A stretch of 64,000 nt of DNA from Gammaproteobacteria bacterium (GTDB lineage: Bacteria; Pseudomonadota; Gammaproteobacteria; SZUA-229): NCBI GenBank assembly GCA_029882355.1, contig JAOUKV010000002.1, positions 19,870 to 83,869 on the forward strand. The letters are read 5' to 3'. Of the stretch, positions 3,001 through 6,000 are shown piece by piece. Every line of letters starts with the position of its first letter. Position 1 is the first letter of the stretch. Made by a program: the position numbers.

Positions 3001-6000
3001 TTAGCTGACTTTGACCCGGATACAAAAGCGATGGATCAGAAGATTGGTCCTGTATACAACTCTATTGAAGACATCATCGCGGTAGTCGATGCTTCACCTC
3101 TGGATTCTCCTTTCTTGCATATGGTTTATACCAAGCAGGATGGTGGTGTATTTACCGACGCTGAATCAAAAGCGGTGGCTCAGACTATTATCAATACAAT
3201 GAGTATTCATGGTAATGCCGATGCAGGTACTCACCCAACTGTGATTAATGAAGCGGGTGATACTCTTGATAGCATCCTGAGTCCTAAATCTAGCTGGCGT
3301 TCCGCACGTACTGCACCAATTACTATTCCAGGTAAGAATCACATCATCGAAGCCTGTTCACCCAAGTACGCCAAGATGGCAATGGGAACAGGTTTACATC
3401 ATGTGAATGCGCTGCCTTGTGAAATCACTGTTAAGACTATCGATAGTGGTAATAAGCTAGTAATAAGCTATCTGGATCCAGCTTTTATGCTGGGTGCGAT
3501 GTTTGCAGACATTTCAGAAGAGGATCAGGCTAAATTTGGTGCGATTCCGGGTCTTATCAATGATGACTTACAGGCGGTAGTAAAAACTGCACTGGATGTG
3601 AATCTAGGTATCGCTCTGAATGCGCCAGTACGTAAAGTTATCAATATGCTTCCGTAATCAGCTTTGATGAGTTAGTTAAATGACCCCTGGTATATTTGCA
3701 AAGTGCATCTGTAAGTGACCAGGGGTTTATTTTTTTTGTGTTTTAGGTGGGAATAATTATGTCTAAGTTGATGGTTGGTTTTTTTACCATATTGTTGCTG
3801 GGTATCGGTCTGCAGGCCAGAGCAGTTGATTATATATTGCCAGATCTGGATGGGCAGATGCAGTCGCTGGATCAGTACAAAGGTAAGTGGCTTATCGTTA
3901 ATTACTGGGCTACCTGGTGTGGTACCTGTTTAAAAGAACTGCCTGATCTTATTTCATTGCACGAAGAGCATATGGATGGCGATATTGTTGTTGTTGGAAT
4001 TAATTTTGAGACAATCAGTAATGAAAGACTAAAAACATTCGTTGCCAAACATTCAATTCCCTATACGATTTTGCGCACTGAGCCAGTGCCAATGACACCA
4101 CTTGGACCAGTACCCGCGTTGCCAGCAACTTATATTATCGACCCTGGTGGGAAAACAGTAGCAGGTGAGGTTGGTATTGTGACCCAGAAAAACCTGGAAG
4201 ATTATATAGAAGGGAGAAAAGTGGTTAGTGACTCTGTCACGATTAAGACCCAGTTAAATGGCGATATTAAAAGTTAAAATCGACCCGATTTACTGATATC
4301 TCCTTAAAGAAACCGAGTGATATATCTCTCTTGAAATCGTTAGAATGATCCCCATATAGCAGTAACCATTAGAATTAAGAGACGAGGTATTGAATGGACG
4401 TTTTAGACAGAATCGACGAGCAGGTAAAAGGCAACGCAGTGATGATTTACATGAAGGGTACGCCACAGTTCCCACAGTGCGGGTTTTCTGGTCGTACCGT
4501 AGAAGCATTGAAGCAGGTCGGTAAAGAGTTTGCTTACTGTAATGTGTTAGCTGACCCTGAGATTTTTGAAAATCTGCCTCGCTATGCAGACTGGCCAACA
4601 TTCCCTCAGGTTTATGTGAATGGTGAGTTGATTGGCGGTTGTGATATCACGCTTGAGATGTTCGAAAATGGTGATCTTAAGAAAATGATTGATGAGGCCT
4701 CAGCGGCTTAGTTAGTTATATTTCATTGTTGAGCTAATTTTGAAATAGCTCAATAAAAAAAGCCACCGTAAGGTGGCTTTTTTTATGTTGATTTTGAATG
4801 CCGATATAATTAGCTAATAATGCTGTTATCACCCTGGGCTATAGCTTTGGTTAGGTTGTTTTGAGTCAGTTCCAGCATTTCTGTAGAGCTGATGGCTTTG
4901 TCACTACCATTGTAATAATGTACGCCAATTGAGCCGGATATTTTGTGATCATTATTTTCAGTTTTGAAGGGGCGCTGATTAATCGCGGCCATAATTCTAT
5001 CCAGGGCGTTCATTTTGAATGAGCCAATCTGTGTATGGTTCATGACAATACCGAAAATGTCGTTATCCAGTCGGGTAATAACGTCTGTGGGCCTAACGGT
5101 ACGGCGTAAGCGGCGGTACATACTAACCAGAATCTCATTTTTTTCGGCTGTGCCTGCGTCATCTTCGATTTGACCAAGATTGTTTAGCTTGATCATCGCC
5201 AGGCAGATACCACCATTCCGGGTCGATGCTTCTTCAAGATTAGCGTCCAGTTCTGAAATCAACATGCGTTCATTACCTGCACCCGTGACATCATCGATGA
5301 GGGCTGATTGCTGCAGGCGTTGAATGGTTTTCTCCATCTGACGCGAAGTTTCAAGAATATCATTCTGCATCACCGAAATACGGGCTGCGGCACTAACACG
5401 GGCTGCCAGCTCATGAGGATTTGGCGGTTTGCGTAAATAGTCATCGACGCCATGTTCAAAGGCTTCAACCAGAAACTCGATGCCTTCGTTGGCGGTGAAT
5501 AAAATAATGGAAGTATAAATACCCTTTTCTTCATCATTCTGACGAATGCGATCGGTCAGTTCCAGCCCGTCCATTTCGGGCATCATCCAGTCAGCAAGGA
5601 CTACGTCAGCAGGTTTTTCTTCAAGCATTTTGAGTGCTTCGAAGGCGCTATCAGCTAGTCTGACACCAGTGTAACCGGCTTTTTTTAGTGCAGATTTAAC
5701 CACGATTCGGCTAAATTGCAGGTCGTCAACGATAATAATGGATAGGTCTTGGTCGGTCATGTATGTGTTTCTTTTTTGTTTTCTAGCAAAGCCTATTGCT
5801 GGCTAGCGGGTATTAGTCCCTTAATAGTCTCTAAATAATAACGGTTTTTGTTCGCATAACAAAGCCATGATTATTATATAGGATATTAGCTCCAAACTGG
5901 GCCAGATGTGTCGTTCCAGCGATTAACGATGGCGCAGAATAGTTCTGCTGTTTGCTTGGCATCATAGAGCGCTGAATGCGCCTGCTCAGTATCCCAGGGT

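Follow-up and report, generated by a model that had tools for sequence, protein, structure and literature searches.

We analysed a stretch of 64,000 nucleotides (hereafter the window) from a gammaproteobacterium of the lineage SZUA-229 (assembly GCA_029882355.1, contig JAOUKV010000002.1, positions 19,870 to 83,869 of the forward strand), and focus on a gene for a response regulator made up of a receiver (REC) domain, a linker predicted to form a coiled coil and a degenerate GGDEF domain (Table 1). We refer to it as the Rec-dead-GGDEF gene. It is a complete open reading frame (ORF), with exactly the bounds proposed in a preliminary description of this DNA. Its product is probably an orphan two-component response regulator that was turned from a diguanylate cyclase (DGC) into a sensor of cyclic di-GMP (c-di-GMP).

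Ranked by sequence, PleD was the closest solved structure (E 1e-26), followed by DgcR, a small Rec-GGDEF cyclase (E 3e-22). An AlphaFold2 model of the monomer, for which the input was a 36-sequence family alignment, reached a mean predicted local distance difference test score (pLDDT) of 84 and comprised a receiver fold, a single long helix (residues 115-153) and a GGDEF fold. When this model was compared to the PDB with Foldseek, the top matches were DgcR (6zxb, E 1e-23), WspR and PleD (range 1e-23 to 1e-19), and isolated GGDEF-domain structures could be placed on it with target-normalised template modelling (TM) scores of 0.83-0.92 and root-mean-square deviations of 1.6-2.9 Å.

Table 1. Features of the Rec-dead-GGDEF gene and of other parts of the window (window coordinates).
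Feature	Position	Strand	Basis or remark
Rec-dead-GGDEF gene, 316 aa: REC, coiled-coil linker, degenerate GGDEF	4810..5760	-	ATG-to-stop ORF
REC domain, residues 8-122	5395..5739	-	Pfam Response_reg, E 1e-26
D57 codon, predicted phosphorylation site	5590..5592	-	'VVLADWMMPEMDG' stretch aligned with the PleD/CheY phospho-acceptor region
Long alpha5/linker helix, residues 115-153, predicted coiled coil	5302..5418	-	AlphaFold2 helix
DxLT-type hinge D156-D-V-T159, start of GGDEF domain	5284..5295	-	Role as in DgcR/WspR (PMC8041772)
GGDEF-fold domain, residues 153-312, catalytically degenerate	4825..5304	-	Pfam GGDEF, E 5e-19
R181, candidate secondary I-site arginine that would cross-link to the GGDEF domain of the partner	5218..5220	-	Alignment near DgcR R163
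Primary I-site motif R223-P-T-D226 (RxxD)	5083..5094	-	Aligns with PleD R359-A-I-D362, DgcR R206-D209
Degenerate A-site D232-N-D-I-F236 instead of GG(D/E)EF	5053..5067	-	Aligns with PleD G368-G-E-E-F372
R255, equivalent of third primary I-site residue PleD R390	4996..4998	-	Residue count on PleD alignment
Bidirectional intrinsic-terminator-like hairpin, 15-pair stem, A/T runs on both sides	4753..4786		AAAAAAAGCCACC-GTAA-GGTGGCTTTTTTT
Promoter-like site TTGTTA-16-TATTAT, weak	5835..5862	-	Consensus scan, 9/12 matches
606-aa membrane protein, HAMP (287-337) and PAS (367-438)	100..1920	+
DUF4259 and leucine-rich-repeat protein	10568-12259	-
cNMP_binding and EAL protein	12345..13640	-	EALIR, N216, EITE, DDFGTGYS, KID, EGIE, GQGY: all canonical EAL motifs
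thiC	52517-54409	+	~180-bp upstream gap 52335-52516
Membrane GGDEF protein without REC	61866..62702	+	RDID-x5-GGEEF

Loss of the catalytic site

At E < 1e-10, a search of the protein database yielded 729 homologues. Of these, the 120 best (64-100% identity), nearly all of 316 residues and originating from metagenomes or metagenome-assembled genomes (MAGs) labelled Gammaproteobacteria, formed our family alignment, and thinning to <85% identity left a non-redundant set of 27 sequences. Residues were mapped onto PleD by counting on a phmmer alignment; the numbering was anchored at G368, N335 and D344, which we take to be the positions used in the PleD literature and with which the alignment count agrees.

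In the translated ORF the active site (A-site) reads R230-L-D-N-D-I-F236, precisely the degenerate string that had been noticed before. Loss extends well outside this motif. The phmmer alignment places K191, N193, G196, E199 and N208 opposite D327, D329, K332, N335 and D344 of PleD, and I307 and D311 opposite K442 and R446, so that PleD's two A-site glycines and the residue pairs that bind guanine and phosphate are all gone. Nor is the replacement itself conserved: positions 232-235 are occupied among the 120 homologues by D/E/G, G/N/D, D/N/S and L/I/V respectively, with entropies of 1.0-2.1 bits, and entropies across all A-site equivalents lie at 1-3 bits (27 sequences). Every substrate, metal and phosphate residue that we checked is thus replaced and drifting among orthologues, which supports the earlier proposal that the domain is catalytically dead. 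Because the residues for GTP and metal binding are all lost, the protein is predicted to be unable to make c-di-GMP. Judged by its residues, the cyclase domain is dead, and its degeneracy is deeper than the GGDEF motif.

Retention of the inhibitory site

The preliminary description had also reported an intact RxxD motif of the inhibitory site (I-site), and this holds: R223, P224, T225 and D226 are each invariant in 120/120 homologues, as is R255, the equivalent of the third primary I-site residue. Five residues separate the D of RxxD from the first 'G' position of the A-site, which is the canonical spacing. The chance that three pre-specified positions of the GGDEF domain would all be invariant is ~0.002 in the 27-sequence set, assuming independent columns.

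A second arginine is also worth considering. In the alignment, the secondary I-site residue R163 of DgcR falls on T180, one residue before R181. R181 is invariant in 120/120 homologues and is kept in 57/61 members of the wider clade of dead proteins described below, and active relatives carry an arginine at position 180 instead (43/55). R181 is probably the secondary I-site, by an alignment that leaves one residue of slack.

In active cyclases such a pocket could be explained by feedback inhibition; here this explanation fails because there is no catalysis left to inhibit. The dead GGDEF domain most likely senses c-di-GMP rather than making it, as its retained contact residues suggest.

The receiver and the coiled-coil linker

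The residues of the REC domain that form the phospho-acceptor site (D12, D13, D57, T89 and K111) are invariant in 120/120 homologues. Downstream, the linker shows a-x-x-d-e heptads, with I128/M131/Q132, L135/T138/S139, M142/T145/I146 and L149/V152/A153 at the a, d and e positions. The alignment gap relative to DgcR is exactly 14 residues, i.e. the linker is two heptads longer. The heptad register puts A153 at -3 from D156 of the hinge motif, a motif in which D156 is found in 120/120 and T159 in 116/120 homologues (60/61 and 55/61 in the wider clade).

DgcR is a constitutive dimer in which pseudo-phosphorylation shifts the register of the coiled coil and repositions the GGDEF domains (PMC8041772). 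The pattern of linker and hinge in the Rec-dead-GGDEF protein agrees with what has been described for DgcR and WspR (PMC8041772). Full conservation of the REC phosphorylation site, and likewise of the coiled-coil switch, makes it in our view a two-input protein.

A wider clade of proteins with REC and a dead GGDEF domain

Outside the family, the next relatives (34-38% full-length identity) come from Pseudomonadales, Alcanivorax and Pseudomonas MAGs and combine scrambled A-sites with 'RPxD'; in relatives more distant than these, GGEEF is present. We therefore took a census by a profile search of 1.84 billion representatives clustered at 50% identity, and classified the best 150. A dead A-site together with RxxD was found in 61/150, nearly all of 300-350 residues; in this group the R and D of the motif are kept in 61/61 and the P in 56/61 (RPxD), R255 in 57, and the REC phospho-residues in 51. 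A dead A-site without RxxD was seen in a single representative (1/150). Among active A-sites, 55/150 representatives carry RxxD (with proline, RPxD, in 8 only) and 13/150 do not, and the last 20/150 are partial or fragmentary.

In a neighbour-joining (NJ) tree, 51/57 full-length proteins with a dead A-site and an I-site, the Rec-dead-GGDEF protein among them, fall into one clade of 52. This grouping argues for a single old loss of catalysis, after which the pocket was long retained. There is, then, a large and apparently single-origin clade of ~320-residue 'REC + dead GGDEF + RPxD' proteins, as delimited by the tree and the census, and the protein studied here carries all of its marks: a single REC, a dead A-site, RPxD, R255 and R181-x-G. 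Three small REC-GGDEF representatives near the dead clade (P0124, P0133 and P0150) combine 'RPxD' with an A-site that is intact or almost so (GGDEF, GGEEF or GGDTF), and may be of the active ancestor type or intermediates of the loss of catalysis.

Selection and gene order

Conservation is unevenly distributed along the protein. In the 27-sequence set, invariant columns amount to 68/115 in REC, 9/30 in the linker and 21/160 in GGDEF, the latter including the five I-site residues, R181, G183, G184, R217 and Q262-R263. Ratios of nonsynonymous to synonymous substitution rates (dN/dS, Nei-Gojobori method on orthologous DNA) were 0.014-0.074 for REC and 0.057-0.144 for GGDEF, values that are rough because dS exceeds 1 and is saturated. 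The GGDEF ratios (dN/dS 0.06-0.14) and the conserved length of ~316 residues rule out a decaying, pseudogene-like GGDEF domain. As far as substitution patterns can tell, the dead domain is maintained by purifying selection.

Synteny was compared on contigs from one genome per species. Fourteen genomes of uncultivated Gammaproteobacteria (one labelled Thiotrichaceae) carry orthologues with 58-90% identity, and at all 14 loci the gene order is the same: flavoprotein-mpl-orf, then pyrC-rnt-X, then grxD, where X is the Rec-dead-GGDEF gene. Because this order is constant across the 14 genomes, we consider the gene a vertically inherited core gene of the lineage. No che, flagellar or kinase genes adjoin it at any of the 14 loci. 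In the Pseudomonadales relatives the neighbours are AmpG-, PanE- and cobalamin-adenosyltransferase-like (the AmpG and adenosyltransferase labels come only from reading the translations). Gene neighbourhood was rejected as a clue to the target, as neighbours in the family and in these relatives are all housekeeping genes.

In the window, the terminator-like hairpin sits between the Rec-dead-GGDEF gene and the convergent grxD-like glutaredoxin gene. The weak promoter-like site lies in the 125-bp gap that follows the upstream RNase T-like (rnt) gene; sites of this kind show no excess over shuffled expectation in the region.

Comparison with known c-di-GMP receptors

The protein had been likened to PopA of Caulobacter crescentus and to PelD. 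The A-site of PopA is inactive. As a functional analogy the first comparison stands (dead A-site, intact I-site), but as a statement of kinship it does not. PopA is a protein of the response-regulator type and a localised adaptor, whose GGDEF domain binds c-di-GMP at the I-site with a dissociation constant (Kd) of about 2 uM, binding and function being abolished by R357G (PMC8020655). PopA is, however, a structural homologue of PleD (PMC8020655), which has two REC domains, whereas the Rec-dead-GGDEF protein has one REC and a coiled coil. PleD aligns with it only as two overlapping pieces, and its score against the NCBIfam PleD family (NF007135) is 165.5 bits for a cut-off of 474. Having only one REC, and scoring under the cut-offs of the family, it is not a member of the PopA/PleD family. 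In addition, PopA has its partners (RcdA, ClpXP and CtrA) in the cell cycle of alphaproteobacteria, and the gene context here points to nothing of the kind.

PelD combines transmembrane segments, a GAF domain and a degenerate GGDEF domain, and is encoded in a pel operon. The likeness to it had to be abandoned: Pfam finds no GAF domain in the Rec-dead-GGDEF protein, its N-terminus is a REC domain, and its gene lies among pyrC, rnt and grxD rather than in a pel operon.

Other receptors are closer in function than in descent. [quoted passage not shown] Compared by its published description, it differs in being a protein of a deltaproteobacterial predator located at the prey-invasion pole. CbrR of Campylobacter jejuni is a GGDEF response regulator that regulates flagellar motility and binds c-di-GMP at its autoinhibitory site, mutation of which abolishes binding (PMC8779298), but it also binds GTP. 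Against the NCBIfam CbrR model, of 415 positions compared to 316 residues here, the score was 72 bits (cut-off 600). In architecture the nearest proteins are DgcR (Leptospira) and WspR (Pseudomonas), with the same REC, an a-x-x-d-e linker leading to a DxLT hinge, and RxxD plus a secondary arginine. These are active GGEEF enzymes, whereas the Rec-dead-GGDEF protein is without any of the catalytic or substrate residues; its score against NCBIfam DgcR was 111.8 bits (cut-off 500). Overall, with c-di-GMP binding predicted from its residues, it fits the functional class of degenerate-GGDEF I-site receptors (PopA, CdgA, PelD, SgmT and CbrR).

Within the clade, the relatives of the Pseudomonas type, exemplified by locus L024, share the ~320-residue length, a dead A-site (DDRHF in L024), RPxD, the equivalents of R255 and R181, and an intact REC. 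They differ in gene order: panE follows the gene in L020, L021 and L024, whereas the family studied here is located between rnt and grxD, and no panE or yajQ gene was found in the window or at L004-L017. The two are separate orthologous groups with different synteny. L024 probably corresponds to PA4396 of Pseudomonas aeruginosa, for which a 'DEQHF' motif is reported, as its arrangement matches the PAO1 order PA4395-PA4397. The clade thus appears to include PA4396, which would be the nearest studied relative.

Accessible literature on PA4396 reports its expression and weak mutant phenotypes, and we found no binding test in it. The gene is activated by AlgR (PMC4787818) and upregulated in biofilm maturation, in a table where its activity column is blank (PMC13128677); in a survey of DGCs it scored weakest (PMC7066473), and it was among 32 'DGC' genes disrupted in PA14 (PMC11963287). 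At L024, a yajQ-family gene (5381-5896, minus strand) is divergent from the REC-dead-GGDEF gene (6001-6966, plus strand). YajQ proteins are reported to act as c-di-GMP effectors in Xanthomonas (PMC4199771), so two putative c-di-GMP binders may share here one intergenic region, AlgR-bound in PAO1 (PMC4787818).

Other features of the window

The preliminary description had placed the gene in a complete local c-di-GMP circuit, together with the membrane GGDEF protein and the cNMP-EAL protein of Table 1. Both genes exist and, from their motifs, their products look active, but the distances to them are about 56 kb and 6.6 kb, respectively, and they belong to separate transcription units. Their surroundings are housekeeping and lipopolysaccharide (LPS) genes, including LPS-core, lipid A, phosphate-transport, GlnE, ThiC and SelO genes, and nothing ties either of them specifically to the Rec-dead-GGDEF gene. 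By its domain content, the cNMP-EAL protein would be a phosphodiesterase under the control of a cyclic mononucleotide, possibly linking cAMP or cGMP to c-di-GMP.

Of the 54 long ORFs of the window, 41 were scanned with Pfam, and none of these encodes a histidine kinase or a che, flagellar, pilus or PilZ protein. In the membrane protein with HAMP and PAS domains, the last ~165 residues match no Pfam family at E < 1e-3, making it a sensor without a recognisable output domain. At Rfam gathering thresholds the window contains no c-di-GMP riboswitch or other RNA, and no tRNAs were found in it. The gap upstream of thiC holds no thiamine pyrophosphate (TPP) riboswitch or other Rfam family, even at E <= 1.

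Base composition varies along the window. Around the DUF4259 and leucine-rich-repeat gene, at 10-12 kb, GC content is low (0.373 versus about 0.44 nearby), and this gene was possibly acquired horizontally. Between 28000 and 40000 GC content is 0.34-0.39, and the genes include those for heptosyltransferase, carbamoyltransferase and an FkbM-type methyltransferase; this stretch resembles a variable region of the LPS/O-antigen type, next to conserved genes for core LPS and lipid A (46-50 kb). Finally, genes for a MoxR-type AAA ATPase, a DUF58 protein and a TgpA-type transglutaminase membrane protein stand in tandem at 14552-18473 (plus strand), in an apparent operon.

A proposed sensor built from a cyclase, and its alternatives

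From the architecture, the loss of catalysis, the conservation of the I-site, the purifying selection and the membership of the clade, we infer binding of c-di-GMP, cross-linking and coupling to phosphorylation. The protein retains all the building blocks of a small cyclase like DgcR or WspR: a phosphorylatable receiver, a 'slippery' coiled coil predicted to dimerise, the hinge and the GGDEF fold. By analogy with DgcR, it would dimerise. An intercalated c-di-GMP dimer would occupy the RxxD pocket (R223/D226/R255), which R181 of the partner subunit would probably complete, and would cross-link both dead GGDEF domains. A kinase that phosphorylates D57 would shift the register of the coiled coil and alter how the two domains meet, and the combined state could be read by a partner protein, with PopA, CdgA and CbrR as precedents of c-di-GMP-dependent adaptors or regulators.

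Several points weigh against this reading. The REC domain is far more conserved than the GGDEF domain (68/115 versus 21/160 invariant columns), and the principal function of the protein may reside there. The neighbours (pyrC, rnt, grxD and mpl) are not tied to a kinase, a target or c-di-GMP. The assignment of R181 is off by one residue from DgcR R163, and RxxD, R255 and R181 might in principle be conserved for the sake of a different ligand or of a contact between proteins. The dimer and its cross-link are extrapolated from DgcR, and our structure model is a monomer. Lastly, a search of the accessible literature found no c-di-GMP binding data for the protein or for members of the clade, PA4396 included.

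The first of these points leads to an alternative that we hold to be unlikely, in which signalling runs in reverse and the protein modulates a phosphorelay. REC would be the output: c-di-GMP bound to the pair of dead GGDEF domains would alter the REC dimer through the coiled coil, and so control either the uptake and release of phosphate by REC (which would serve an orphan kinase as sink or connector) or the binding of a CheY-type target. The exceptional conservation of REC, surfaces included and with dN/dS down to 0.014, speaks for it, as do the conserved linker, the match of REC alone to CheY proteins (E about 1e-16), and the coiled-coil coupling of DgcR, which is mechanical and in principle bidirectional (PMC8041772). 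Yet che, flagellar and kinase genes are missing next to the gene in all 14 genomes, and equally strong conservation of REC is expected from kinase docking and dimerisation alone. It is similarly doubtful that the entire clade, PA4396 included, works as a 'backwards' coincidence detector, where a c-di-GMP clamp gates phosphotransfer or partner binding at REC. If true, this would be a direct and widespread link of c-di-GMP into two-component phosphorelays, made from a recycled cyclase chassis.

We find it quite improbable that the protein acts as a dominant-negative or heteromeric partner, silencing an active Rec-GGDEF paralogue through the coiled coil or through I-site cross-links, or as a buffer of c-di-GMP. 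Catalysis requires two GTP-loaded GGDEF domains, so a dead partner blocks it (PMC8041772), and the closest relatives that are not dead are small active Rec-GGDEF proteins with RPxD, e.g. P0133 and P0150. A buffering role has a parallel in CdgA, which acted as a c-di-GMP sink when expressed in Escherichia coli (PMC3271064). There is, however, no active Rec-GGDEF paralogue nearby, the only DGC of the window being the membrane GGDEF protein without REC, and a pure buffer would need neither an intact phosphorylation site nor a switch linker, yet both are invariant.

The chances are smaller still that the conserved pocket binds some other ligand (another cyclic dinucleotide, GTP or (p)ppGpp) or is structural, the protein being then a phospho-dependent scaffold. 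The degenerate GGDEF domain of PdeA of Caulobacter senses GTP. PleD binds (p)ppGpp (bioRxiv 10.1101/2025.08.22.671821), and c-di-GMP binding by the protein studied here is itself a prediction. Against this, the conserved residues coincide precisely with those that contact c-di-GMP in PleD and DgcR, and RxxD is missing from just 1/62 dead representatives. The A-site contacts for GTP or (p)ppGpp (R446, Y439, N335 and D344 in PleD) are replaced and variable, which led us to rule out sensing of either nucleotide at the A-site.

That the protein would still be an active cyclase despite its odd motif, like the AGDEF protein VCA0965, is hardly credible: some sources do annotate a 'diguanylate cyclase (GGDEF)-like protein', P. 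aeruginosa surveys count PA4396 among DGCs (PMC7066473; PMC11963287) and an AGDEF enzyme is active (PMC3974145), but both glycines, the context of the acidic residues and the equivalents of N335/D344 and K442/R446 are replaced and vary among orthologues, and PA4396 was the weakest-scoring candidate in deletion and overexpression assays alike (PMC7066473).

Implications

Degenerate GGDEF domains with an I-site are already an accepted class of c-di-GMP receptors, and the principle is not new. The present analysis adds a clade that, after the loss of catalysis, has long kept the c-di-GMP contacts together with the coiled-coil switch and the site of phosphorylation. Should binding be confirmed, this clade would offer a ready system for the integration of phosphorylation and c-di-GMP in one protein, and censuses of 'DGC genes' in many genomes would need correction. 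The clade appears to include a gene of a tractable model organism, PA4396 of P. aeruginosa, that most authors list with the cyclases. The Rec-dead-GGDEF gene is a conserved core gene at a fixed chromosomal position in the uncultivated gammaproteobacteria from sediment that carry this DNA, which suggests a central rather than an accessory role.

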